From assembly GCA_949292205.1 (NCBI GenBank), contig CASEYR010000006.1, positions 32,016 through 96,015 of the forward strand: DNA of 64,000 nt, written 5' to 3'. Both the position numbers and the translations under genes were made by a program. The DNA is from an uncultured Alphaproteobacteria bacterium. GTDB lineage: Bacteria > Pseudomonadota > Alphaproteobacteria > CAAHEQ01 > UBA3637. Under the pieces are notes generated by a model. It was not told the DNA's origin, did no database searches, and worked only from the letters and a program-made list of their open reading frames with translations. Every line of letters begins with the position of its first letter. The stretch's first letter is position 1. Shown here one piece after another: positions 1,564 through 32,770 of the stretch.

Positions 1564-2133
1564 ATGCGTTTTTTGGCTATCACGATTTTGTCCGTTTTCT
1601 TTTTGACCGCTTGTCAGGCGCCTGTCTTGAAACCCTTTACCGTGAAAAATTATCACGATGAAGCGCCCATCCAATTACGCGTTTCTGAAATTCAAATCGA
1701 TAATCAAATGACGGTTTATTCGGAGCTGCCGCACATCGAAAAACGAATGCCGGTTTCTCCGGCTACCGCTTTGCAGGATTGGATTCGAAATCGCTTCGTC
1801 GCCGCCAATCCTACTAGTCATGATGTCGCTCGGTTCGTCATTCGAGAAGCCTCGATGGTTCAGAAAACAAAGCCCTCCGGCAGTTGGTTTGTCCTAGATA
1901 ATACTGTCTATACATTGACTTATAAAATTGATGTGCTGTATCTGCGAAACGGGCGTCAAATCGCTTCGCAAAGCGTTGCCGGTTGGGAAAAACAAGGCTT
2001 GCCGAAAAAAAGCTCTTCTCTGGCCGAAAAAGAGGCTGTCTGGCAAAAAATGCTAAACACAATGATTCAAAAAACAAATGATAAAATTATCTCTGACTTG
2101 CCCCATGAGATTTGTTTGAACGAATGTCCTTAA
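1564..2133 (+). CDS. hypothetical lipoprotein
   Basis: Signal peptide ending in lipobox LTAC; no recognisable catalytic motif. Confidence 0.5.
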   Translation: MRFLAITILSVFFLTACQAPVLKPFTVKNYHDEAPIQLRVSEIQIDNQMTVYSELPHIEKRMPVSPATALQDWIRNRFVAANPTSHDVARFVIREASMVQKTKPSGSWFVLDNTVYTLTYKIDVLYLRNGRQIASQSVAGWEKQGLPKKSSSLAEKEAVWQKMLNTMIQKTNDKIISDLPHEICLNECP

Positions 2134-4115
2134 TTTCCCCTGCTTTTTATAACTTACTGCAAACAGAATATAAAAATATATCCGTCTTTTATATCGTCGC
2201 TTTTATCGCCGGTATCTTGTGTTGGTTGGACGGCTTTCATCCTTCGGGATTCTTGTGGGGCTTTTTGATTGCTCTGCCGTTTGTCTTATTGCTCCTAAAC
2301 AGAAAACGGTATCGTTGGCCGCATGTTCTGGCTTTTATGACTCTCTTTTTCGGTATCGGTTGTTTCGCAACAGCTTTTCGTGCCGAATCCGTTCAGGCGC
2401 CGACAATACCGAAACCGATGTATCATGTGGTGCTGACGGGAACGATTTCCGATGCCTCGGTTTTGATGGACTCGCAGAAAGTCATTGTGACGGATGTCCG
2501 TTTCCTGAATGAACCCGCTGTGATGCCGCCGACAAAAATAAAATTGACTTTTCATCAAACGGAGCCTCGCTTGACGGTTGGACAAACAGTGCAGGCTGAA
2601 GTTTTCTTGCGGCCTCCCGGAAGACCGGTGGCCCCCGGAGCTTATAACGAAGCCAGAGCGTTATGGTTTCAACAAATCGGTGCCGTCGGAACAATCAACA
2701 AAGTCATTCATCTATCAGAGGCACCGCACGTATCTGCTATTAAAAAATATATTGAGCGGATTCGAACCGTTATCAGTCTGCGTATTCAAAAGGCAATGCC
2801 GGTTGAACCGGCCCGAATTGCTATCCCGTTGGTTATCGGAGAGCAGGGCGTTGTTTCACAACACTTGTATGATATTTTTCGGAGTGCCGGTATCACCCAT
2901 GTTCTATCTGTTTCGGGTTTCCATTTGAGCTTGTTGGCGGCTCTGGTCTTTTTTCTGATACGCGGCGGATTGTCCTTTTTTCCGAGCATTGTTGAACGCA
3001 TCTCGACCAAAAAAGTGGCGGCTTTTACGGCGCTGGTTTTCTCGGTGGTCTATATCGCTATTTCGGGACTTCAGATTCCGGCTATCCGATCCTTGATTAT
3101 GATTGCCGTCGTCTTAATCGCGATGCTCTTTGACAGAAATGCTTTCTCGGTTCGATCTCTATCAATCGCGGCCTTCTTAATCTTAATCGTTCGTCCCGAA
3201 ATGGTATTAAATATCGGATTTCAACTTTCTTTTATGGCCGTTCTCATCCTTGTTACTTTGTATGATCCTTTGGTGCACTTGATTTTTCCGAGTCGCCCCG
3301 TTCATTTGCTGCTTCGTTTCGGTGCCGTTATCTTGAGTTTTATCATTGTTGATATTTTGACGGCTTTGGCTACAACTCCCTTTATTATTTATCACTTTAA
3401 TCAATATGCTCTTTACAGCGGTGTCGGTAACTTGTTAACCGGAACTATTTTATCCTTTTGGGTGATGCCGATGTTGTTGTTTGCGACTTTGTGTATGCCT
3501 TTCGGCGGGGAGGTGCTTTTCTTAAAAGGGGCTGCTTTGGGATTAGAATATGTCGTGGTTGTGTGTGAGGCAATCCAAAATTGGCCGTTGGCTTTGACGA
3601 CATTCCCCTCCTACGGCGTGGCCGCTTTGTTGACAATGACTTTCGGTGTTATTTGTTTATGCTTGATGCGGACGCGGTTGCGTTTCGTCGGATTTGGGGT
3701 GATTTCTCTTGGGGTAATCTTGGCTATTCTGACGCCTCGTCCTGATTTGTTGGTCGGTGATAAGGGCTTTTCCGTTGCCGAGCGGACAGCTGACGGCAAG
3801 TTGCACTTTTTAACGACCGGAGAGTCGGATTATGTTCGGCAGGCTTGGTTGTTGCGAAATGGAGAAAATCCTTTGGATAATAATGTGGCTTATCGGCAAA
3901 AATTGCCCTCGGCTATTTGGATGAAGCATCAGAAAATTGCTTTCTCGGCAAAAGAATGCTTGGATGCCGATCTGTGCTTTCTCCCCGAGCCTAACCCCAC
4001 GATGCCAAATGCTTTGCCCTTATACGAGTTTAATACGCGCGCCGTCTATATAACGCCCCTTGGCATCATCGTTCGTCGCGCCGAAGAGAGTGATGTCGGA
4101 AAGCCTTGGTTCTGA
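2112..4115 (+). CDS. comEC: ComEC/Rec2-family DNA internalisation channel protein (no metallo-beta-lactamase domain)
   Basis: 667 aa, polytopic; competence-domain signature ITHVLSVSGFHLSLLAALVFF. Confidence 0.8.
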   Translation: MFERMSLISPAFYNLLQTEYKNISVFYIVAFIAGILCWLDGFHPSGFLWGFLIALPFVLLLLNRKRYRWPHVLAFMTLFFGIGCFATAFRAESVQAPTIPKPMYHVVLTGTISDASVLMDSQKVIVTDVRFLNEPAVMPPTKIKLTFHQTEPRLTVGQTVQAEVFLRPPGRPVAPGAYNEARALWFQQIGAVGTINKVIHLSEAPHVSAIKKYIERIRTVISLRIQKAMPVEPARIAIPLVIGEQGVVSQHLYDIFRSAGITHVLSVSGFHLSLLAALVFFLIRGGLSFFPSIVERISTKKVAAFTALVFSVVYIAISGLQIPAIRSLIMIAVVLIAMLFDRNAFSVRSLSIAAFLILIVRPEMVLNIGFQLSFMAVLILVTLYDPLVHLIFPSRPVHLLLRFGAVILSFIIVDILTALATTPFIIYHFNQYALYSGVGNLLTGTILSFWVMPMLLFATLCMPFGGEVLFLKGAALGLEYVVVVCEAIQNWPLALTTFPSYGVAALLTMTFGVICLCLMRTRLRFVGFGVISLGVILAILTPRPDLLVGDKGFSVAERTADGKLHFLTTGESDYVRQAWLLRNGENPLDNNVAYRQKLPSAIWMKHQKIAFSAKECLDADLCFLPEPNPTMPNALPLYEFNTRAVYITPLGIIVRRAEESDVGKPWF

Positions 4116-5908: not shown

Positions 5909-7372
5909 TTAGATGTGGATGAGTCCGCGTGCAAAAGCGTAAATGGCAATTAAGGCAACGGCCACAATTGCAACGGCTAAAGCTTTTTCCGGTTCGGAAA
6001 ATAACGGCTCTTTAGAGGGGGTATCTTGTCTTGCCCAAATATAAAACGGGATACCTATTGCGATAAAGATAGCGGCCATCAGTAAGTAGCTGAAGCCGGC
6101 TGCATACAGCAACCAAATCGCATAAACCGTTCCTAATATTCCGGTTGTTAACGCTGTAAAGCGACTGACGCCGGTTGTTTTGGGTAATTCATTATCCTCG
6201 CATAATTTCCACAAAAATAAGCAGGACATCAGATAGGCCGGTAAGACCATAACTCCGGTAATCGATAACATGGTGTTCCACGCATTATTCGCAAAATAAA
6301 CCAAAATCATAGCCGCTTGCATTAAACCACTGGTAATCCAAAGAGATATATTGGGCGAGCCTGCTTTATTTTCGTATCCGAAAATTTTTGGAAATGTCCC
6401 ATTCTTGGCCATTGCATAGGGCATCTCTGCAACAATCATTGTCCAGGATAGCCAGCTGGCTAAAATGGCAATAACAACGCCGATGTTCATCAACCAAGAG
6501 CCCCAGGGACCAACAACAAGCTCTAAAACACCTGCTGTTGACGGATTGGCTACCGCTGCCATTTGAACACGTGTCATAAATCCAAAGGGCAATACAGATA
6601 GCAAAACATAAATGGCTAAACACCCTAAATAACCAATTAAAGTGGCTCGCCCAACATAGGATTGTTTTTCGGCGCGTCCCGATAAAACAACGGCTCCTTC
6701 AATACCAATGAACGCCCACAGTGTAACCAGCATCGTGTTTTTAACTTGGCTTCCTAAATCTCCTAATTTGTCGGTCGACAGCTTACCCCAGAAATCAAAA
6801 TCAAATTTATCCATATTGAAAACGGCTGTCATAATGATGATAAAGAGGAGTAGAGGAACGATTTTTGCAATTGTGACCACGAGGTTTATCATGGTCGCTT
6901 GCTTAACGCCTCTTAACACTAAGAAGTTAAAAAACCAAATTAAAAATGATCCGCCGATGACGGAATATAGATTGTTTCCTCCGGTAAAAACGCCGGGGAA
7001 GAAATAGTCCAGAGCATCCATTGTGATGACTGCGTAGCCGACGTTTCCGAAAATTTGACACAGCCAATAACTCCAACCGATATTAAATCCCATGTAGGGT
7101 CCGAATCCCGAACGTGCATACATATAAATACCCGATGTTAAATCGGGGCGTGCATCTGATAAAATCCGAAATGTGTTTGCTATAAAATACATCCCAAAGC
7201 CCGTTACTAACCAAGCTAGGATGACGGCTCCGACCGCTGCACTTTGTGCCATGTTTTGCGGAAGTGAAAAAATACCGCCACCGATCATGGAACTGACGAC
7301 GATACCGGCTAAACCGAAAATGCCTAATTTACCCGCAGGGCTCATTCCTTGTTGCTTATTTTTTTGAACCAT
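5909..7372 (-). CDS. APC-family basic amino acid antiporter (arginine:agmatine or arginine:ornithine exchanger, AaxC/ArcD/AdiC-like)
   Basis: 487 aa, about 12 TM segments; N-terminal GLAGIVVSSMIGGGIFSLPQNMA... closely resembles ArcD/AdiC-type exchangers; lies immediately downstream of the pyruvoyl ArgDC gene on the same strand. Confidence 0.72.
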   Translation of the reverse strand: MVQKNKQQGMSPAGKLGIFGLAGIVVSSMIGGGIFSLPQNMAQSAAVGAVILAWLVTGFGMYFIANTFRILSDARPDLTSGIYMYARSGFGPYMGFNIGWSYWLCQIFGNVGYAVITMDALDYFFPGVFTGGNNLYSVIGGSFLIWFFNFLVLRGVKQATMINLVVTIAKIVPLLLFIIIMTAVFNMDKFDFDFWGKLSTDKLGDLGSQVKNTMLVTLWAFIGIEGAVVLSGRAEKQSYVGRATLIGYLGCLAIYVLLSVLPFGFMTRVQMAAVANPSTAGVLELVVGPWGSWLMNIGVVIAILASWLSWTMIVAEMPYAMAKNGTFPKIFGYENKAGSPNISLWITSGLMQAAMILVYFANNAWNTMLSITGVMVLPAYLMSCLFLWKLCEDNELPKTTGVSRFTALTTGILGTVYAIWLLYAAGFSYLLMAAIFIAIGIPFYIWARQDTPSKEPLFSEPEKALAVAIVAVALIAIYAFARGLIHI

Positions 7373-7443
7373 TTTATCCTCCTTTTGACAAAGGGGCGGT
7401 TCTTGACTGTTACGCCTTGAACCGCCCGATTATCAATTGAACT

Positions 7444-8028
7444 TTACTTTTTCAACTCGACGGCCGGTGCGTTTTCAAAATTCAGAAATCCTAATGCCGT
7501 TAAAGAATATCCAAATGCTTGCTCTATATTGACAAAGTTATGGAAAAATTGAAAATCACTATGTTGTTCCATACCGCGAAGCTCTAACTCATGCTTCAAT
7601 GATTTTGTTAACCACATCTCGGCATGTGCTTTCGCAATGTCGTCATCAATAAACGTGTCAAAGTATTCAACATATTCGGCTGCCCAACCGCCGACAAATT
7701 GATCGTCTTTTTTACCCCAGACAATCCCGACACCTGTTGCAATTGCTTTGTGATCTTCACGACGGGCTCCGTTTCCGGCAATAATGACCTCTAATACGGC
7801 TCCGTGCTTAAATGTGTGGGCAACTTGATCAACGGGTACAATGTTTCCAAATAGTTCCGGCGGTAATACCGATGTGTATGGAACGACATTGAAGTCTTGA
7901 ATCTTGGCGGCGGTTAATGCCGAATCATAACAAAATGTTTCAAACGGTTGCGGCGGAATGCCGTCTTCTGCTTGACCGGCTCCGCCGGTGTGAAAAGCAA
8001 GTGTTGGATATCTTGTTCCATATGCCAT
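7444..8028 (-). CDS. pdaD: pyruvoyl-dependent arginine decarboxylase (PvlArgDC family; AaxB/PdaD-like)
   Basis: 194 aa; [12 protein letters not shown] aligns with the self-cleavage region N-x-I-R-I-S|S-I-M-P-P-E of archaeal PdaD and chlamydial AaxB (Ser gives the pyruvoyl group); AAGGAG SD. Confidence 0.72.
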
Positions 8029-8058
8029 TTTTTTTCTCCTTATGTCTTATTAATTGCT

Positions 8059-8070
8059 TGATTGCAATCA
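8059..8070. promoter_or_regulatory. 12-bp perfect palindrome TGATTGCAATCA abutting a TATAAT on the pdaD side of the divergent intergenic region
   Basis: Exact palindrome seen in sequence; candidate operator; the binding factor is unknown. Confidence 0.3.
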
Positions 8071-8182
8071 TTATAAAAAATAGGTTTTTTTATAATTCCT
8101 CGTCAACCTGACCAAAAGTCGGATGGACAGCCATTTTTTTAATCCCATATGACTTTTGTAACTTTTTACAAAGGAGAAAAAT

Positions 8183-8524
8183 ATGAAAAAACTGTTAATC
8201 GCCGGCGTCGCCGCTCTTGTTTTGGTCGGAACTGCTTCTGCTCGTGCAGAAACAATTCAGGGGAAAGTTTTATCAACTAAAGGAAATATGGTTACCATTC
8301 AACAAAAAGATGGTACGATCAAGTCTTTGACGATGACCGATAATACGACTTATCGTAAAAAGAAAATGATGAAAAAAAATAAAATGAAACATGGCCACTT
8401 GAAAGAAAAAGGGAAAACATATTATGAACCAATGATGGAGGAAGATGATTGGATTGAAATCGTTTATACTCCGACTTCCGATACTGAAATGGTCGCCGAA
8501 GATGTAACTGTCTATGATGATTAA
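8183..8524 (+). CDS. small secreted Lys-rich/acidic hypothetical protein
   Basis: AGGAGA SD; Sec signal MKKLLIAGVAALVLVGTASARA; KKKMMKKNKMKHGHLKEKGK tract followed by an acidic tail. Confidence 0.5.
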   Translation: MKKLLIAGVAALVLVGTASARAETIQGKVLSTKGNMVTIQQKDGTIKSLTMTDNTTYRKKKMMKKNKMKHGHLKEKGKTYYEPMMEEDDWIEIVYTPTSDTEMVAEDVTVYDD

Positions 8525-8572: not shown

Positions 8573-8663
8573 TGTCGCTTGAACGGGAGTTGTGTGTAAA
8601 AAAAAGATGACTTCTTGATTTGGGCATGCTATAATGTCGCCAAATAAGAAAAGGCTTTTCATG

Positions 8664-9761
8664 AATTTGATTTTATTTCGCTATATTTTAAAGCAGTTTG
8701 CTCTGATCTTTTTCGCAACCCTCTTTATCTTGACGGCTGTTATTATGCTGTTCGATGTTATTGAACTGCTGCGAGAGGCTTCAAAACATGAAGGCGTCGC
8801 TTTCTTTGATGTCGGGGTTTTGGCTCTGCTGAAATCTCCTCAGATGATTCATATCATCTTGCCTTTTGTTACCTTAATTGCCGGTCTTGTCTTTCTGTTT
8901 AAATTTAGTCGATCCTCGGAGTTAATCGTTATGCGCGCCGTGGGGCTTTCCGTCTGGAACTTTATCCTGCCCTTGATTATGTTTATCACGATTGTCGGCG
9001 TTTTTGATGTGACCGTTTTTAATCCGATTGCCGCTTTGACAGCTAAACGATTCGAACGTTTGGAAGAACGTTTGGGTATGACGCGTTCAACCCCGTTTTC
9101 CTGGTCCGAAGAGGGGTTCTGGTTGCGGGATATTCGCCCGAAAGAAGTCTTGGTTATCAGAGCGTCCCGCGTGCGTCAGGATAAACAAGATGTTTTGTTG
9201 GATAATGTGTCCGTTTTTGAACTGGATAATCAGGATAACTTTAAACGTCAGAGTGAGGCTGAATTGGGGACTCTTCAGGGCGGAATGCTGACCTTGAATA
9301 ATGCTTTCGTCATCGATTCAGAGTCCGAAACCGGACGAACCGTCGGGCGGTTGTTATTTAATACCGGTCTTAACCTAGATCGTATCTTGGAAAAATTTGA
9401 TGAACCTCAGACTATGTCCTTCTGGAGATTTCCTTATTTTATCCGCTTTTTAAAAGAGTCCGGTTTCGCTTCACAGGCTCATGAAATGTATTGGCATGAA
9501 CTTATCGCTTTTCCGGCAACTCTGGTGGCGATGATTCTAATCAGTACCGTGTTCGCTCTGCCGCCGACAAGTCGGCAGGGAAAGGTCTTGCTACGTGTCT
9601 TGTTGGCTATTCTGTCCGGCTTTACACTCTACTTCTTATCTCGCGTGACCAATGTCTTGGGGCAGTCCGGAAGTTTGCCGATGTTTCTGGCCGCTTGGGG
9701 CCCCGCTTTAATCGTTATCCCCTTGTGTTTGTCCGCTTTATTACATTTGGAGGATGGTTAA
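8664..9761 (+). CDS. LptF/LptG-family LPS export permease (YjgP/YjgQ)
   Basis: MNLILFRYILKQF... six-TM permease with periplasmic beta-jellyroll insert; start chosen at the Met preceded by AAGAAAAGG rather than ORF-track 8634. Confidence 0.72.
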   Translation, partial: NLILFRYILKQFALIFFATLFILTAVIMLFDVIELLREASKHEGVAFFDVGVLALLKSPQMIHIILPFVTLIAGLVFLFKFSRSSELIVMRAVGLSVWNFILPLIMFITIVGVFDVTVFNPIAALTAKRFERLEERLGMTRSTPFSWSEEGFWLRDIRPKEVLVIRASRVRQDKQDVLLDNVSVFELDNQDNFKRQSEAELGTLQGGMLTLNNAFVIDSESETGRTVGRLLFNTGLNLDRILEKFDEPQTMSFWRFPYFIRFLKESGFASQAHEMYWHELIAFPATLVAMILISTVFALPPTSRQGKVLLRVLLAILSGFTLYFLSRVTNVLGQSGSLPMFLAAWGPALIVIPLCLSALLHLEDG

Positions 9762-10725: not shown

Positions 10726-11676
10726 ATGTCAAAAATATGGTTGTTAACAGATGATCGTATGGGAAATGTTAATCAGTTATTGGGGATTGCCGAGGCTTTG
10801 GAACAGCCTTTTGAACGACGCGATATTCGCTATACTTCTTGGGTGCGATTGCCGAATTTTTTGCGCGGAAAATCGTTAATCGGGGTTGATGAACAAACTA
10901 AACAGTCTTTGTTGCCTCCATGGCCCGATGTCGTTTTATCCGCCGGTCGTCGGTCTTATCCCGTTGCCAGATATATTCGCAAAAAATCCGGTGGTCAAAC
11001 GAAAATCGTTCAACTGATGAACCCTGGATCTGCCGGTTTTGGGGAGGCCGATATCGTTGTTTTGCCGGCTCATGATAATTATAACGGACGGACGGATAAT
11101 GTTCTGGTCGTAACGGGGGCGCCTCACCGTGTTACGGGGGCTAAATTAAAGGAGGCTCGTCAACAATGGAAGGATACGTTGGGGCAATATCCCTCTAAAC
11201 GTGTTTCTTTAATCGTTGGCGGTGCAACAAAAAATAGGCCTTTTACCAGTCAAATGGCTCGTCAATTGGTGGACGGCGTTAAGGCTTTGAATCCTCAGTC
11301 CGTTCTGGTTACAACCTCTAGACGAACCCCAAAAGAGGTTGTTGCTATTTTGAAACAAGAGCTATCACAACCTTGCTTTTTCTACCAGTTCGGTGATGCG
11401 GGTGATAATCCTTATTTCGGATTGCTGGCTTGGGCCGATGAAATTGTGGTTACCGGCGATTCAATGTCTATGTGCTCGGAATGCTGTGCTGTCGGTGTCC
11501 CCGTGTTTATTTTTGCTCCGAATGATATGATGAGCCCGAAACATAAACGTTTTCATCAAACACTCTATCGCGATGGGTATGCCGCACCGTTGGGGGCTGC
11601 AACCGTTTTTCCGAAAGGCAGTCTGAATCCTTCCTTTACTATCGCAGAAAAGATTTTGCAACATATTTCAAGATAG
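10726..11676 (+). CDS. ELM1/DUF1022 (COG3660) family protein, predicted nucleoside-diphospho-sugar transferase-like
   Basis: N-terminus MSKIWLLTDDRMGNVNQ and overall length typical of alphaproteobacterial ELM1-like proteins. Confidence 0.5.
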   Translation: MSKIWLLTDDRMGNVNQLLGIAEALEQPFERRDIRYTSWVRLPNFLRGKSLIGVDEQTKQSLLPPWPDVVLSAGRRSYPVARYIRKKSGGQTKIVQLMNPGSAGFGEADIVVLPAHDNYNGRTDNVLVVTGAPHRVTGAKLKEARQQWKDTLGQYPSKRVSLIVGGATKNRPFTSQMARQLVDGVKALNPQSVLVTTSRRTPKEVVAILKQELSQPCFFYQFGDAGDNPYFGLLAWADEIVVTGDSMSMCSECCAVGVPVFIFAPNDMMSPKHKRFHQTLYRDGYAAPLGAATVFPKGSLNPSFTIAEKILQHISR

Positions 11677-11908: not shown

Positions 11909-12055
11909 GGACATTAAATTGTTACGCTTTTACCCTTACCATAAATCAAAAATCATTACAAGTCTTTTTTAAGATTTTTTTTATTTTTTGAGTTGCTTTT
12001 TAGATGATTACTTATTTCTTTATGACATCAACTTTAGCGTAACAATTTAATGTCC
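11909..12055. repeat. perfect 19-bp inverted repeats (GGACATTAAATTGTTACGC at 11909-11927; reverse complement at 12037-12055) bracketing a 109-bp AT-rich segment upstream of the Cys-rich pilin gene
   Basis: Exact reverse-complement match read directly from the sequence. Confidence 0.8.
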
Positions 12056-12067
12056 GTTAAATTGTTA
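12040..12067. promoter_or_regulatory. palindrome TAACAATTTAA-tgtccg-TTAAATTGTTA (11-bp arms) overlapping the right inverted repeat and the putative -10, 18 nt before the SD
   Basis: Exact palindrome; the same 11-mer also occurs at 11914-11924, so three copies within 160 bp. Confidence 0.45.
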
Positions 12068-12085
12068 TAGAAGAGGAGTCGATTA

Positions 12086-14149
12086 ATGAAAAGCAAATAC
12101 CATATGACATCTATTGATGTAGCGGAAGAGTCAGCAGAGTTAAATAAAAGATATACCCGAATAAAGAGAAGTAAAGAGAATGAATCGGGGCGAAGTATGG
12201 TCGAAATGCTGGGCGTTCTGGCCTTGATGGGTGTGTTGGCTATTGCTGGTGTTATGGGGTATCGATGGGCTATGGATAAGTATCGGGCAACGGATACCAT
12301 CAATGAAGTAAATCGGCGGGCAATTGTTCATTCCACTCAACTGATGTCATCAGGCGTTTTAAATGCTTCCGAGTTTCCCCTGGAAACACGTCAAGGATAT
12401 GGCACAGAGGCAACTCTGCTGACCGGAAATCAAACGGGTTATTTTGAAATTTCTCTGACAGACGTTCCTGGTGGGGTGTGTCGCGAGATATTAAAATCCG
12501 ACTGGGTATGGCCGGTCATGAAGAAAGCCAACGGAATAGACTATACAGGCAATGCTGATATTTGTCGAACCGATACAGGCGTGCGAATGGTATTTGTATT
12601 TTCCAGTGATTTAAGCGGAAAGTCAGCAGACTTCAGACAACGTTGTCAAAAAGATGATGATTGTCGGAGTGCTTGCGGTGTCTGTGACAACGGATATTGC
12701 AGCAGTCAATGTCGAGAGGGAGAGACATGTGGACGAACCTATGATAATTCGGAATTTTATGCGTGTTGTTCAAACGATAAAGTCCTGAACGGCGTATGCT
12801 GTCCGACGATTATGAACGGACAATGTTGTGCCAGTATCGGCAGTTGTTGTCCTGCGGATAAGCCGTTAATGGACAAGGACGGGAACTGTCATACCTGTGA
12901 TGAGGAAGGCTCTGTCAATGTTACGGGCAATACGGTGATGTGTGGTATTTGCGACGGGCAGGACGGCCGAACGAAACGGGAGTTAAACGGAAATACATGT
13001 GTCTTGCCATGTCCTCCGGAAACACCTTTGATGGATAGAGATGGTAACTGTCATCGGTGTGATGAAGATTCTATTCAAATCACCGTTGCTAATAAATCAA
13101 AGTGTGATGTTTGTCCGGATAGAAATTATTGGGGACCAGGTGCACGATGTGAATTACCTTGTGGCATAAATTCATTTTTAGGAACTTACTCTAATTTGCC
13201 TTGTAATCCCTGTACGACAACAGACGCTATTAATATCACATATCGTTCCGCTGAAGAATGTATAACAAAATGTGATGGTAGCTCTCCAGATCGACCAAAG
13301 CGAATAGATATTTCGGCTGGGGCAGGATTGGCAACACACTTTTGTGCTTTGGCTTCTTGTCCTAAGGATAAACCGATACGTTCATCAAGTGGAACATGTT
13401 ATGCCTGTGGCGTTCGAACTGTAAATGTAACAGGATTTGAGCAAACATGTTTTTCATGTCCGGGCTATGTTTTAAGAGGGAAAATATGTACGAACACAGG
13501 GTGTCCAACAGGATCTCAAGCTAATGAAGAAGGGCGTTGTGTGTGTGATGACTCGACACAGGTGCAGGATTCAAGTGGAAATTGTTATCCCTGTGATTCG
13601 GGTACGATTATTGATGTAACGGGAGTTTCCGAAAACTGTGATGTGTGTCAAGGGAGGCGTGTTACCAAGGTTTTTTACCCAAGTGTTACAAAATGTATGA
13701 AGCCGTGTGCAGATGATGAGTTCTATACTGGTGAGGGATGTCGCAAATGTAATGATACGGCTGTCATAAGTATGTATGATGATGCTGAGTATTGTTTATA
13801 CTGTGATGGGCAAGAGGGACGTGCACAACGCGTATGCGTCCCAGGGGCGTGTCATGCTTGTGCGTTGGTGTGCTCTTCGGGTATGACGATGGCAGGAGAC
13901 GGCACGTGTCATACATGTGATGAAGTGGAACCGTTTAGTGTGTCAAACGGTATGACAGCCAGCTGTAATACTTTTTGTGCCGGAAAGAGATATCTGGTCG
14001 GAACGATGTGTTATAAGTGTCCGCCGGATACATACAGTCCCGATGCAAAACAATGTATTCAATGTCCTTATAACAATATGGAAACGCTAACACGAGAAGC
14101 TGATTGTCAGGCTTGTGGTGGTTCGTGGGACGGAACAACGTGTCAATAA
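12086..14149 (+). CDS. modular type IV pilin-like protein: class III (prepilin) signal peptide plus pilin-like head domain plus about 500-aa cysteine-rich tandem-repeat module
   Basis: AGAGGAG SD 7 nt upstream; 35-aa leader ending ...ENESG, then RSMVE with Glu at +5 and a 20-residue hydrophobic helix; Cys132/Cys160 fit a pilin D-region loop; residues 187-687 carry about 66 Cys with at least 5 repeats of about 35 aa (P-x-[DE]-[KT]-P-[LI]-x-D-x-D-G-N-C-H-x-C-D-E-x6-V-T-G-x4-C-x-x-C). Confidence 0.65.
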   Translation: MKSKYHMTSIDVAEESAELNKRYTRIKRSKENESGRSMVEMLGVLALMGVLAIAGVMGYRWAMDKYRATDTINEVNRRAIVHSTQLMSSGVLNASEFPLETRQGYGTEATLLTGNQTGYFEISLTDVPGGVCREILKSDWVWPVMKKANGIDYTGNADICRTDTGVRMVFVFSSDLSGKSADFRQRCQKDDDCRSACGVCDNGYCSSQCREGETCGRTYDNSEFYACCSNDKVLNGVCCPTIMNGQCCASIGSCCPADKPLMDKDGNCHTCDEEGSVNVTGNTVMCGICDGQDGRTKRELNGNTCVLPCPPETPLMDRDGNCHRCDEDSIQITVANKSKCDVCPDRNYWGPGARCELPCGINSFLGTYSNLPCNPCTTTDAINITYRSAEECITKCDGSSPDRPKRIDISAGAGLATHFCALASCPKDKPIRSSSGTCYACGVRTVNVTGFEQTCFSCPGYVLRGKICTNTGCPTGSQANEEGRCVCDDSTQVQDSSGNCYPCDSGTIIDVTGVSENCDVCQGRRVTKVFYPSVTKCMKPCADDEFYTGEGCRKCNDTAVISMYDDAEYCLYCDGQEGRAQRVCVPGACHACALVCSSGMTMAGDGTCHTCDEVEPFSVSNGMTASCNTFCAGKRYLVGTMCYKCPPDTYSPDAKQCIQCPYNNMETLTREADCQACGGSWDGTTCQ

Positions 14150-14180
14150 AAAAAAGAGCCGAAAGTTATTTCGGCTCTTT
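14148..14180. terminator. bidirectional terminator between convergent Cys-rich pilin gene and Lon-like protease gene
   Basis: AGAGCCGAAA-gtta-TTTCGGCTCT hairpin flanked by an A-run and a T-rich tail. Confidence 0.55.
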
Positions 14181-14193
14181 CATCTTTAGAGGA

Positions 14194-24584: not shown

Positions 24585-25391
24585 TTACTCGCGTGCGTGC
24601 TCGGTTTTCGGAGACGGTTGAGCCATCATCTGGTTATCAATCTTTTTTGCTTGTCTGCCAATTGCTACGGCAATGATGGCTTGGATTTGGGGAGTAATTT
24701 GTGTCTTGTTTTGTTTCATGATATCGGGCAACGATGTGCCGTGCTTACTTGTTACATGAACCGACGCCCCTAAATCCAATAATTTTTGAAGAACTTTGGG
24801 TTTGTTCATCAGAGTGGCACAAAAAACAGGGGATTCTTCTACCTTTGGAATCCGTTGATTTAAATCAACCCCGTTTTGATGAAATAAATCAATCATTGCC
24901 GGCATATCTTGTATTAATGCTATTGACAGGGGGGATAGCCCTCTTTTATTTTGCGTCATTCGTGCGCCGTTTTTCAGTAAAAAGCGTGCAATCCTTGTGC
25001 GGCCGGCAGTGACAGCAAAGATTAATGGCGTGTTGCCATTCTCATCAGATACGTTAACATCAGCTTTCAGTTGTAGAACCAAATTCTTTACGGTGTCTAA
25101 TTGGCTTCCCTCGGATACGACGGAAAGAAGTGTTTGTGAGGCTTGTTTCCGAACGGAGCGTCCGATATGTTTCGGGTTAAACAGACCACAGGGATTAACT
25201 GTATCGGCACATAGATTGATGTTAAGGCGTGCCATATTAAGCGCTATTTCAAGTCGTTGAGTTTGACGAGCTTGAATCTGTTTTTGTTGTTCCGGTGTCA
25301 ATCTGGCCCAGATAGATTGGATACGTAGTTGCTTTTTGTCGGGGGCTTCTATTGTAGGTTCCGGTCGTTTTTTGCGAAAAAATAATCCCAT
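24585..25391 (-). CDS. ankyrin-repeat protein
   Basis: Several 33-aa ankyrin units, e.g. GNTPLIFAVTAGRTRIARFLLKNGARMTQ and GLSPLSIALIQDMPAMIDLFHQNGVDLN. Confidence 0.75.
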   Translation of the reverse strand: MGLFFRKKRPEPTIEAPDKKQLRIQSIWARLTPEQQKQIQARQTQRLEIALNMARLNINLCADTVNPCGLFNPKHIGRSVRKQASQTLLSVVSEGSQLDTVKNLVLQLKADVNVSDENGNTPLIFAVTAGRTRIARFLLKNGARMTQNKRGLSPLSIALIQDMPAMIDLFHQNGVDLNQRIPKVEESPVFCATLMNKPKVLQKLLDLGASVHVTSKHGTSLPDIMKQNKTQITPQIQAIIAVAIGRQAKKIDNQMMAQPSPKTEHARE

Positions 25392-30106: not shown

Positions 30107-32770
30107 ATGGATGAAAAAAAACCACAGGAATTTCCGGCAAATCCGATGAATCAGGATTTATATAGTCAGATCGCTGCAGGCGATGAAATAAGAGTTGAAA
30201 AAAAACATAAAACATCTTTCATTATGTCTTTAATGATTGATTTTATGCGCTTGACTCTGTATCTTGACGAACAACGTCGGACACATCAAAAATTATTTCA
30301 TGCACTGGGGGTTTTTTGGGCCGGTGTGATGGTTATGCTGTATCTGTCTGGTATTATGATGTTTATTATTTTGGTGTATAGCTATATCCAATTCCCGACT
30401 TATGTTCGTCAGTATTTTGAGCGTAATGGTATTTTGTTTACCAAAATGGATATTCCGGGATATGTGGTGTCCCGTGTTGAGTTAAGAGATCTTCACGATA
30501 AAAACAATACATATAAAATTGATAGATTGGTGGTTCATTCAACGTTCTCTGACTTTTTGAACGGACGGGCTAAAAGTGTTTCTTTGAATGGTTTTCGATT
30601 GACTCTGGAAGAAGATACAAACAAAACGGAATCCGATAATTTGCTTGGATTGTTGTTGCATTTGAATGACATGCGTCAGTCTCAGGTCGCTATTCAGGTG
30701 GATTCATTGGAGGTGTCTGATGCGGTTTTAACGTTGAAAGGTCGGGATTATTCTCTGCCTATCTCTTTTTCTTTGACCGGTGTTTACGGAAAAGAAACAA
30801 ATATGAGTGCTTATGTGACGGTTGATGAGCCTTGGTTGGCTTTGAAGGGGCCGTTACTGATTCGTGGAAATGCTCGGGAAACAAATTGGGAGTTAGATAT
30901 TCAGTCCGGAATGATTACTTTCCCGAGTCGCCCTCCGGAAAAATTGTCGGGTAAGATTGCTGTGAATACACGTGATTTTAAGGTTCAATCCGTTTCTACA
31001 GATATCAAAATGCTCTTTAATCGATTTGAAAAAGCGGTGCAAATGAAGTTTGACCGAGATAACAAGAATAAGTTTAAGGCCTCTGTTGATTTAAAATGGC
31101 AGGATATTGCCGATGATGGTGTTGGGCGTAATGTGCGTTCAAATATTAATTTGGCTATGACCGGACTTGTTTTTGGAAAAGGAGGGGATGTTAAAACAAC
31201 AGAGCCGATTTCTGTCACGATGAAATCAAATTATTCAAAGGATTTGCAAGTGGAACGATTGACAGCTTCTTTGCGAGGGGAATTGTCTTGTCGTCTATAC
31301 GATTCTTGTAAATATCGTTTGAAAAATTCAGCTCAGTTGACGATGAATCGCTTGCGTGTCCCAGGACCGAGTGATATTTTGGAAAGTGATAGAACGGTTA
31401 CCATGATGTTGAATCCAACCGAAAAAACGTTTGAGTTGTTTTTTAAAAAGGGATTGTTGAGCTTTGATTTGTCTGGAACTCGCATCGGGTTTATCGGTAG
31501 AAAATTGACTTCTGAAGATGGAATATCTCTGCGTGCGGATAAAGCTAACATGAAGGGGACGTTGGATTTTCTGGGAAATAAAACTGAAGGGAGTTTGACT
31601 GCAACCGGTATTTCTTATGATACACCACATCAAGAAATAAAGCGTGCCTCTTTAACGGTTGCCAATATTTTTGATGATGAAAAAAATATAACTTTAAAGA
31701 GCCCTCAGGTAATATTGAAAAACAATTCGTATTTAAAGGCTCCGTTTGATTTGGATTATCAATCAGTTGATGGATCTGTGCGGGCGGTTTTGAAGTTTAA
31801 AAAAGAGGATCTACAAATTATTTTTGTCGGTGCATTCAGTCCAATGACCGGAAGCGTGAACGGGCAAATTATTATTCCGGCATTTGAATTGTCAAAATTG
31901 CCTAAGCCATTGTTGAGTTTTTCAGGTATTTTTCCCTTTGGCATGGATCAGGTTTCTGGAAAAATGGCTGTTTTTGGACGTATCAGCGGTACAACCAGAT
32001 CAGAGTTAAGCGGTCCGATGTATGTTGCTTTGAGAGATGTTGATTTTACTACGGAACAAGCACGTGTAAAAGGGTTGAATACCGTTTTGACTATTCAAAC
32101 ATTACGACCTTTTGTTACAGCGACAGCGCAACAGTTGTTTGCTAATGAAGTCAAAACCGTATTACCTTTCCAAAATGTGCGGATGTTCTTTAAAATTGAT
32201 AATCAATTTTTGCGATTGTCTTCTATGCTGGCTTCGGTAGCTGGTATCCCGCTTCGTTCTGATGTTGCCATCATTCCATATAAGGATATTAGTACCTTGA
32301 TTTATTTGAAAAGTCTAAGTCAAGATTTAACTCCTGCTGTTGGGCGTATTAAGGCAAATGGCTGGGAGATCGGCGGTAAGCCTCAAGGGACGATCTTATT
32401 GCCTCTGGAAATTAAAAATAAGCAAATGGCTGTTAAAAATGCAAGTGTTCGGATTGTCGGCGGTGAAGCTTTTTATAAGGGAGACGCAAAAAACAAGCCG
32501 GTCTTTTTAGAGGAGGGCAATCAGGTCAACCTGATCAATGGTGAAATTATGATTGATGAGCCTTTGGGGTTATCAAATGAAACATCGGTTCAATTTAATT
32601 TAACCGGGGCTATTCCTCCATCCGGAAAACGAATAACAATCCAAGAGTCTTTCAGAGGTTCTATTCGGAATTGGATACAGGATGCTCCGCTAAATGAGGA
32701 TGTCCCAAGTTCGATTAGAACCCAACAAAATGCTGTCTTTGATCAGGCCGAAAAGTTGCGTGTTAAATAA
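30107..32770 (+). CDS. large membrane-anchored hypothetical protein (AsmA-like/DUF3971-like architecture)
   Basis: 887 aa; N-terminal TM helices, then long beta-rich, Gly/Ser/Thr-rich periplasmic region; family assignment is tentative. Confidence 0.4.
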   Translation: MDEKKPQEFPANPMNQDLYSQIAAGDEIRVEKKHKTSFIMSLMIDFMRLTLYLDEQRRTHQKLFHALGVFWAGVMVMLYLSGIMMFIILVYSYIQFPTYVRQYFERNGILFTKMDIPGYVVSRVELRDLHDKNNTYKIDRLVVHSTFSDFLNGRAKSVSLNGFRLTLEEDTNKTESDNLLGLLLHLNDMRQSQVAIQVDSLEVSDAVLTLKGRDYSLPISFSLTGVYGKETNMSAYVTVDEPWLALKGPLLIRGNARETNWELDIQSGMITFPSRPPEKLSGKIAVNTRDFKVQSVSTDIKMLFNRFEKAVQMKFDRDNKNKFKASVDLKWQDIADDGVGRNVRSNINLAMTGLVFGKGGDVKTTEPISVTMKSNYSKDLQVERLTASLRGELSCRLYDSCKYRLKNSAQLTMNRLRVPGPSDILESDRTVTMMLNPTEKTFELFFKKGLLSFDLSGTRIGFIGRKLTSEDGISLRADKANMKGTLDFLGNKTEGSLTATGISYDTPHQEIKRASLTVANIFDDEKNITLKSPQVILKNNSYLKAPFDLDYQSVDGSVRAVLKFKKEDLQIIFVGAFSPMTGSVNGQIIIPAFELSKLPKPLLSFSGIFPFGMDQVSGKMAVFGRISGTTRSELSGPMYVALRDVDFTTEQARVKGLNTVLTIQTLRPFVTATAQQLFANEVKTVLPFQNVRMFFKIDNQFLRLSSMLASVAGIPLRSDVAIIPYKDISTLIYLKSLSQDLTPAVGRIKANGWEIGGKPQGTILLPLEIKNKQMAVKNASVRIVGGEAFYKGDAKNKPVFLEEGNQVNLINGEIMIDEPLGLSNETSVQFNLTGAIPPSGKRITIQESFRGSIRNWIQDAPLNEDVPSSIRTQQNAVFDQAEKLRVK

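Follow-up and report, generated by a model that had tools for sequence, protein, structure and literature searches.

The subject of this work is a 687-residue protein encoded by the open reading frame (ORF) 12086..14149 (+) of a 64,000-nucleotide stretch of DNA from an uncultured Alphaproteobacteria bacterium (contig CASEYR010000006.1; the whole stretch is called the window below). We consider it likely that the gene encodes a modular pilin of the type IVb (T4b) class, which probably serves as an adhesin displayed on a pilus. Support comes from the signal motif and its conservation, from the pilin fold, from the structure of the protein family, and from the T4b machinery encoded by related genomes. 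The protein, as read from the window sequence, consists of a pilin module (residues 36-180) followed by a separate module of cysteine-rich repeats (residues 187-687).

The N-terminus carries a class III (prepilin-type) signal, namely a glycine at -1, a glutamate at +5 and a subsequent hydrophobic helix segment (alpha1-N). An initial annotation, made from the letters of the window alone, had listed the Shine-Dalgarno sequence AGAGGAG 7 nt before the ATG, a 35-residue leader ending in glycine, the sequence R-S-M-V-E with its glutamate at +5, and a hydrophobic helix. All of these elements were found again; the hydrophobic stretch behind R36-S-M-V-E40 comprises the 19 residues MLGVLALMGVLAIAGVMGY at positions 41-59. 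The relatives of the protein share the near-invariant motif E-x-G-R-S-M-V-E-M-L-G-V-L-A-I-x-G-V-L-S, and the length of the leader varies between 5 and more than 100 residues among the annotated homologues. Alignment of 42 diverse N-domains shows no exchange at G(-1), E(+5) and two cysteines; RSM (R36/S37/M38) as well as MLGVLA are conserved in at least 90% of the members. The two cysteines, C132 and C160, are the only ones within residues 1-186.

Comparing the profile of these 42 members with all PDB sequences gave 16 matches at E ≤ 10, 15 of which are type IV pilins (best E 3.9e-4). The matches include TcpA, PAK pilin, CFA/III and geopilin and are in register over alpha1: M-V-E-M-L of the family is aligned to L-I-E-L-M of the solved pilins, and the family glutamate therefore corresponds to E5 if cleavage takes place after Gly35. 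Using hhalign and the bundlin-like major pilin of an Escherichia coli T4b plasmid, ENESG/RSMVEM was paired with KEEKG/LSLIES. Cleavage is predicted at G35/R36. The assignment to class III with T4b character, already proposed in the initial annotation, is sustained by the invariance of the motif, by the PDB profile matches and by the hhalign result.

The structural analysis points in the same direction. AlphaFold2 modelled residues 31-190 with a predicted local distance difference test (pLDDT) value of 91.4 and a predicted template modelling score (pTM) of 0.80. The model contains a helix of about 52-55 residues and a subsequent four-stranded sheet; as in pilins, the long N-terminal helix is packed on an antiparallel beta-sheet. 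The top 14 PDB matches found by Foldseek are all T4b pilins, among them Salmonella Typhi PilS, TcpA, CofA, and CFA/III. The pilin head with Cys132 and Cys160 that had been presumed earlier is thus recovered in the model, and this pair is the invariant one. Because sequence evidence (profile, hhalign) and structural evidence (AlphaFold2, Foldseek) agree, the reading of residues ~36-180 as a type IV pilin module of type IVb character is well supported; for the latter attribute, the 35-residue leader, the T4b pilins as best structural neighbors and the T4b operon of close relatives can be named. The T4b subclass is defined by a long leader of about 15-30 residues, a T4b-type head, and dedicated assembly genes such as those for TcpQ, PilO2 and a PilN-type secretin.

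The family resembles the known T4b pilins, i.e. Vibrio cholerae TcpA, CofA/CFA-III of enterotoxigenic E. coli, BfpA of enteropathogenic E. coli, and PilS of S. Typhi/R64, in its long hydrophilic leader ending in glycine, the serine at +2, the glutamate at +5, the hydrophobic alpha1, and an alpha-beta head with a cysteine pair. Likewise, relatives encode the corresponding kind of machinery (TcpQ, secretin, PilO2, ATPase, platform). In contrast to these pilins, the family has an arginine instead of Met, Leu or Trp at +1, its signal stays below the cut-offs of curated hidden Markov models (HMMs), and its head is smaller, with about 90 residues after alpha1. Moreover, its genes lie outside of the assembly operon and have dozens of paralogues, and the window member possesses an extra module of 500 residues.

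Three other assignments were considered for the N-terminal part. Flp/Tad (type IVc) pilins are 50-80 residues long, contain the motif G/xxxxEY and depend on a machinery of TadV, TadA/CpaF, TadB/C, and RcpA. This identity is ruled out by size (652 residues for the mature window protein, 126-163 for pilin-only members), by the sequence EM in place of EY, and by the TcpQ/PilO2-type machinery. An ordinary Sec signal is ruled out by the pilin fold and by the invariance of the G/E motif, and against a pseudopilin of the type II secretion system (T2SS) speaks that no GspC/L/M components were found.

A search of 5.8 billion proteins yielded 173 relatives, all of which are unnamed or called "hypothetical protein" and stem from metagenome-assembled genomes (MAGs) of Alphaproteobacteria; family protein P0001 is 100% identical to the window protein over 686 residues. 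Scanning one genome per GTDB species confirmed at least 566 family loci. The best 80 of these belong to uncultured gut Alphaproteobacteria of humans (Hadza, Nepal, Brazil) and ruminants, except for one bin. This exception is a "Lactobacillales bacterium" bin (locus L030, CAYPVK010000013.1), and the PilO2 homologue P0456 is labelled likewise; the contig is probably a mis-binned or mis-classified alphaproteobacterial one. Genes of the family lie dispersed between housekeeping genes. Tandem arrays are frequent (four copies each in L033 and L040), and the MAG SIG53 contains at least 19 copies. The C-terminal modules differ between members: besides cysteine repeats there are F5/8 type C discoidin domains, teneurin-type EGF repeats (for example in P0107; the window protein has none), and other cysteine-rich regions. 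Some members consist of the pilin module only and end at genuine stop codons, 126-163 residues after the conserved glycine (L027, L034, L063, and L066). These paralogues, whose neighborhoods contain housekeeping genes only, are candidates for the filament-forming major subunit.

Over the first 30 codons, the 19 SIG53 paralogues share 70% of their nucleotides versus 74% of their amino acids. Recent gene conversion of the 5' ends is ruled out by this mean nucleotide identity of only 70%. The motif is kept despite synonymous differences and AGT/TCT exchanges of serine codons between paralogues, which indicates purifying selection on the signal motif and not gene conversion.

The window contains no pilus assembly gene. 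The initial annotation had concluded that the machinery would be encoded elsewhere, and a T4b operon was indeed found in close relatives. With the T4b cluster of a Bosea plasmid as query, we detected in locus L075 genes for a PilL-like protein, TcpQ, a secretin, PilO2, a PilP-like protein and the start of an ATPase; this run ends 3 kb from a family member. PilO2 homologues are widespread (296 matches), and several carry the NCBI name "type 4b pilus protein PilO2 [Alphaproteobacteria bacterium]". On three further contigs, precomputed Pfam annotation reveals a seven-gene operon composed of an unknown gene, TcpQ (PF10671), Secretin (PF00263), PAP_PilO (PF06864), another unknown gene, T2SSE, and T2SSF. 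One of these contigs, JAFYRI010000003.1 (GCA_017559525.1), additionally carries the family member P0011; the other two are L093 and L094. The operon is homologous to the T4b clusters of E. coli and Bosea plasmids, with E-values of 6e-99 (ATPase), 2e-67 (platform), and 8e-64 (secretin). The operon comprises neither a peptidase gene nor a pilin gene, and the latter fits pilins that are encoded elsewhere in the genome. The window organism is close to the operon-bearing genomes: PvlArgDC and the permease share 92% and 85% identity with their counterparts beside the operon in L075, and GyrB shares 90% with the L058 protein.

Furthermore, a solitary, divergent ATPase of the T2SSE family is conserved in the clade, in neighborhoods consisting of housekeeping genes only. 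Its closest plasmid homologues are the second, PilT-like ATPases of T4b clusters (Bosea and E. coli plasmids). Although NCBI names some homologues "TadA", the TadA-family model reaches only about 40 bits versus 112 for PilT. A literature search for T4b pili in alphaproteobacterial MAGs found nothing, and neither did a search with the motif string.

The C-terminal module is distinguished by its cysteine content. The window protein contains 68 cysteines (9.9%), 66 of which are located in residues 187-687 (13%), in line with the count of about 66 in the initial annotation; in 20 other ORFs of the window the mean is 0.88% and the maximum 2.2%. The number of CxxC motifs in this module is 17, compared to 8.6 +/- 2.6 in shuffled sequences. 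C187 to C255 are nearly invariant in the subfamily. In regular relatives, the subsequent repeat unit has 48-54 residues and six cysteines and follows the pattern CP.DKPL.D..G.C[YH].CD-x5-V-x-V-x5-C..C.NR-x6-C. By means of hmmsearch and the repeat profile A3, five significant copies were identified in the window protein (Table 1). At least five tandem units of ~35 residues had been proposed before. This length is not upheld; the motif given at that time covers the conserved N-terminal two thirds of a unit.

A full-length AlphaFold2 model has a mean pLDDT of 85; within the repeat region, values of 85 to 97 were obtained for most blocks of 10 residues. In the model, this region is made up of short beta-hairpins with one short helix per 50-65 residues. 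The spacing of the helices suggests about eight structural units, and the hairpins are consistent with an elongated, disulfide-stapled rod. The program TRF found no DNA tandem repeat in the gene, and the DNA copies of the unit are 63-75% identical; the repeats are therefore old and maintained at the protein level.

Within the family, the repeat profile occurs in 92 of 228 proteins, with 1-15 copies each. Pfam gave nothing for the repeat module, also in relatives that are built mostly of repeats. When 1.84 billion representative proteins were searched with the unit profile, only 383 clusters were found. Among 135 new carriers, 25 have a pilin-like N-terminus, and a few more possess variant forms missed by the motif screen. 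Most of the remaining ones begin like ordinary Sec signal peptides, and the only carrier with a named source comes from an Alphaproteobacteria MAG. Given the rarity of the repeat and the prevalence of Sec-like carriers, we infer a clade-restricted bacterial module of the periplasm or cell surface, which would be paired with two kinds of export signals. The six-Cys repeat is a new repeat domain.

Several side observations concern such cysteine-rich proteins. P0242, P0253, P0257 and others of the same clade combine a Sec-like N-terminus with the six-Cys repeat and have no pilin module. A 639-residue cysteine-rich protein with a Sec-like N-terminus (L090:15873-17792 (-)) adjoins the T4b operon. 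Genes for DsbA-like thioredoxins followed by LysM/M23 peptidase genes lie near a pilin-only gene (L063:6075-6944) and near the solitary ATPase (L086:1616-2473); they may serve the oxidation of cysteine-rich proteins, or their proximity may be coincidental.

Pilins with additional modules had been regarded as rare in the initial annotation, which is at variance with the more than 1,200 cases and 264 architectures on record (PMC8179133). Examples are the vWA module of PilB and the lectin module of PilC from Streptococcus sanguinis (Raynaud et al. 2021, PMC8179133). The present family follows the same plan of an N-terminal pilin "carrier" and a non-pilin C-terminal "effector", and its relatives carry discoidin or EGF-like modules. 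However, that survey was defined by IPR012902 (PMC8179133), which the family does not reach; the family further differs from the surveyed proteins in its undescribed six-Cys repeat, in the T4b system of a diderm, in at least 19 copies per genome, and in its tandem arrays. A second parallel is PilV of R64-type thin pili, whose alternative C-termini determine binding specificity (PMC5430464, PMC9045228). Unlike PilV and the shufflon of IncI/R64 thin pili, and unlike the minor pilins TcpB and CofB, the family varies by many separate genes and not by inversion within a gene, and its C-terminal modules are unrelated. A shufflon relies on multiple inverted sfx repeats at the 3' end, by which C-terminal segments are exchanged. 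There is no such repeat set at the 3' end of the window gene; the repeats inside and 3' of it are diverged direct repeats, and the only strong inverted repeat near the gene lies upstream.

Taken together, these data suggest the following mechanism. The class III signal would take the protein into the inner membrane, where a prepilin peptidase would cut after Gly35 and leave R-S-M-V-E with its glutamate at +5. The hydrophobic alpha1 and the small head would then allow entry into a type IV filament, built by the R64/Bfp-like T4b machine of close relatives, which consists of a PilL-like protein, TcpQ, secretin, PilO2, a PilP-like protein, ATPase, platform, and a separate PilT-like ATPase. The disulfide-rich stalk of 500 residues would be the displayed "effector"; most likely it is a rod at the tip of the pilus that acts as an adhesin or binds a ligand. 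Cleavage, incorporation into the filament, location at the tip, and adhesive function are all inferred. The gene belongs to a clade-specific repertoire, in which the pilin module is constant and the C-terminal modules differ between paralogues. This model matches the concept of modular pilins (PMC8179133) and parallels the variation of the PilV C-terminus in R64.

Several findings weigh against this interpretation. The main gap in the argument is the missing prepilin peptidase: neither in the window nor in ~1.5 Mb of related loci nor in the operon did we find an A24 enzyme, using tblastn and phmmer with E. coli GspO and the A24 peptidase of a T4b plasmid, plus a screen for the GxGD motif and transmembrane segments. 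The matches obtained were spurious, for example one in L073 that lies inside a PBP1A gene. In addition, the T4b operon is known from contigs of close relatives and not from the genome of the window itself. The signal is atypical as well. PROSITE PS00409 has a hydrophobic or aromatic residue (Phe, Met, Leu and similar) at +1, whereas at least 90% of the family members have the unusual arginine and a few a histidine. For the full-length window protein there is no Pfam or NCBIfam match even at E ≤ 10, and its N-domain alone scores 12.6 bits with N_methyl (PF07963/IPR012902), below the cut-off of 21.2. When the 42 members were scanned singly, sub-threshold matches were obtained with N_methyl for 29, with TIGR02532 for 16 and with the N-terminal domain of PilS (PilS_N) for three; none of them reached a curated cut-off, including those of PF07963 and TIGR02532. 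The structural similarity is modest, too: Foldseek probabilities are up to 1.0, yet E is ~4e-3 and TM-scores range from 0.37 to 0.57. Finally, one or two minor pilins are the norm in a T4b system, and it is therefore possible that only some of the dozens of bulky subunits encoded per genome take part in a filament.

Some of these points would be explained if the signal remained uncleaved and the pilin-like N-terminus merely tethered the protein to the inner membrane, with the cysteine module in the periplasm and no filament being formed. No peptidase would then be needed, the position of the genes among housekeeping genes instead of pilus operons would be expected, and the occurrence of the repeat behind Sec-like N-termini indicates that it can fold in the periplasm. 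We consider such an anchor unlikely, as it has no need for an invariant G(-1) and E(+5) or for a conserved globular head with a cysteine pair; moreover, the clade has conserved a T4b machinery that lacks its own pilin gene, and pilin-only paralogues exist. The number and bulk of the paralogues, which argue against polymerization of all of them, would also agree with a short pseudopilus or piston, i.e. a T2SS-like use of the T4b machine for which the pilin module is an export handle and by which the cysteine module would be set free or presented at the outer membrane, not on a long pilus. A secretin and a second, PilT-like ATPase are available for this purpose, and models of GspG, GspH, and XpsH match the N-domain weakly. 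Still, components of the GspC/L/M type were not found, the machinery is R64/Bfp-like T4b with TcpQ and PilO2, and the pilins that match best in structure belong to true T4b pili, which makes this use rather improbable.

The initial annotation had proposed that the cysteine module is host-mimicking or adhesive. As a mimic, it would derive from or imitate eukaryotic furin-like, EGF, Giardia VSP or ciliate surface-antigen repeats. The high cysteine content and the CxxC periodicity are indeed shared with furin-like/insulin-receptor cysteine-rich regions, EGF, and VSP, and the ankyrin, Sel1 and dispersed type IV secretion genes of relatives would fit a host-associated lifestyle. On the structural level, however, Foldseek gave only marginal matches to the cysteine-rich region of the insulin receptor (probability 0.14-0.15) and to the Entamoeba Gal/GalNAc lectin (0.01), and the Pfam scan, including furin-like, EGF, VSP, and GCC2_GCC3, was empty at E ≤ 10. 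The repeat unit is marked by a signature of its own, CP.DKPL.D..G.C[YH].CD...C..C.NR...C, and it is narrowly distributed: it occurs in 383 clusters only, most of the other carriers seen are Sec-like, the one with a named source is alphaproteobacterial, and no eukaryotic carrier was identified. An origin from or imitation of a eukaryotic protein is therefore highly improbable, and the modular T4b pilin remains the preferred reading.

A perfect 20-nt inverted repeat upstream of the gene (Table 1) ends 16 nt before the Shine-Dalgarno sequence; its chance expectation is 0.02. The enclosed segment is a possible regulatory or invertible element, and we count it as part of the feature only tentatively. 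This architecture is enriched upstream of family genes: perfect inverted repeats with arms of 15 nt or more and a distance of 100-145 nt precede 12 of 82 family genes versus 2 of 614 control genes. Repeat arms of 12-32 nt around a segment of 100-145 nt were also noted upstream of family genes in L019, L022, L033, L037, L040, L031, and L071. In L011 and L013, two paralogues of one MAG with near-identical flanks, the segment between the repeats has opposite orientations, such that a TTGACA-N17-TAAAAA site is directed towards the gene in L013 and away from it in L011. A second cassette of 127 nt, which is conserved among paralogues, has one orientation only in 11 instances; a metagenome scan with its junction gave just three relevant loci, all oriented like the eight genome copies. 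In the inter-repeat segment of the window, no convincing sigma-70 promoter was found in either orientation. At a contig end, L038:1-440, two 5' ends of family genes face each other across a 115-nt spacer in a perfect inverted duplication of 86 nt, which may be an inversion or duplication junction.

Contigs often end at the upstream cassettes: the ENA contig L001 of the window gene stops at window position 12061, and at least 10 of 80 genome contigs end 10-190 nt upstream of the pilin start, several exactly at the right repeat arm. These ends could reflect heterogeneity due to inversion or merely cassettes present in multiple copies. As multi-copy repeats could also explain the breaks, phase variation by promoter inversion is a lead and not a result. 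A more far-reaching scenario, which we regard as possible but doubtful, combines one T4b machine with dozens of interchangeable modular pilins that share G/RSMVEMLGVLA, each of them carrying a different disulfide-rich or lectin-like "warhead", and some perhaps being switched by invertible, repeat-flanked promoter cassettes (L011 versus L013). If so, this library of pilins would be the gene-family counterpart of the R64 shufflon, cassette switching would create a combinatorial, phase-variable display at the pilus tip, and the arginine at +1 would mean that the prepilin peptidase, or else the chemistry of the N-terminus, departs from the PilD paradigm.

The signatures IPR012902 and TIGR02532 miss this pilin family, although many copies are present in each of the small genomes; it is consequently undercounted when type IV filaments and modular pilins are surveyed. 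New here are the non-canonical signal, the six-Cys repeat domain and the unusually large, variable repertoire of modular T4b pilins, and the family connects an R64/Bfp-type T4b pilus with a large set of variable surface modules in poorly known, uncultured Alphaproteobacteria of the human and ruminant gut. If displayed, the proteins are prime candidates for the attachment to hosts, protists or other bacteria. Should the upstream cassettes invert, they would constitute a new example of multi-locus phase variation outside of the Bacteroidales.

Table 1. Features of the pilin gene and its upstream region (window positions unless a locus is named; E-values for the repeat profile).
Feature	Position	Strand	Remarks
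Perfect 20-nt inverted repeat, GGACATTAAATTGTTACGCT at 11909-11928, reverse complement at 12036-12055	11909..12055		flanks a 107-nt AT-rich segment
Shine-Dalgarno sequence AGAGGAG	12072..12078	+	7 nt upstream of ATG; read directly from the sequence
Leader peptide, residues 1-35	12086..12190	+	hydrophilic; its end E-S-G35 provides the predicted -1 Gly of the class III signal
Predicted mature N-terminus R36-S-M-V-E40 and hydrophobic alpha1-N, residues 36-60	12191..12265	+	
Pilin module, residues 36-180	12191..12625	+	long helix, four-stranded sheet, invariant pair C132/C160
Whole Cys-rich module, residues 187-687, and stop codon	12644..14149	+	66 Cys
Cys-dense linker or knot region, residues 187-254	12644..12847	+	four CC pairs, kept across the subfamily
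Repeat units 1-2, residues 255-308 and 309-358	12848..13159	+	E 5.5e-20 and 9.6e-19
Repeat unit, residues 425-471	13358..13498	+	E 7.4e-17
Repeat unit, residues 493-539	13562..13702	+	E 1.6e-9
Repeat unit, residues 602-644	13889..14017	+	E 5e-5
Hairpin terminator	14152..14181		13-bp stem, then T run; separates the convergent pilin and Lon-like protease genes
Inverted-repeat segments of L011 and L013	L011:9734-9946; L013:3716-3896		
Contigs ending near the pilin start	L016, L017, L029, L062, L065, L067, L070, L072, L080, L081 (locus starts)		

The remaining content of the window comprises housekeeping genes, ComEC and an ankyrin protein. The ComEC/Rec2 DNA-internalization protein (2112-4115 (+)) matches PF03772 and DUF4131, and TIGR00361 below threshold. 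Since a type IV filament is usually required for the uptake of DNA, competence may be a further role of the pilus. Ankyrin-repeat proteins are encoded in the window at 24585-25391 (-) and in relatives at L002:2005-3216 and L087:1394-2275; relatives have Sel1 proteins as well. The gene directly upstream of the pilin gene, 10726-11676 (+), matches "Mitochondrial fission ELM1" (PF06258, E 7.5e-81), an unusual family name for a bacterial gene. An 887-residue protein (30107-32770 (+)) has a weak YdbH-like match (AsmA-family lipid transport) and is otherwise unannotated.

A conserved block of genes for a pyruvoyl arginine decarboxylase, an amino-acid permease and a small, lysine-rich secreted protein was found at 5909-8524 of the window, at L075:7045-9654, and at L094:3335-5909. 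It adjoins the T4b operon in two relatives, but in the window ORF 8634-9761, which by eye resembles an LPS-export permease of the YjgP/YjgQ type (LptF/G), and a histidyl-tRNA synthetase gene; hence, the region has been rearranged. Single type IV secretion genes, namely VirB4/CagE preceded by an ORF of 95 residues and a TrbC/VirB2-like pilin, occur among housekeeping genes (L087:16441-19174, L090:5707-6093, L093:6174-6515). This scattered organization may resemble that of Rickettsiales. In two genomes, the TrbC-like gene lies directly upstream of the T4b operon.

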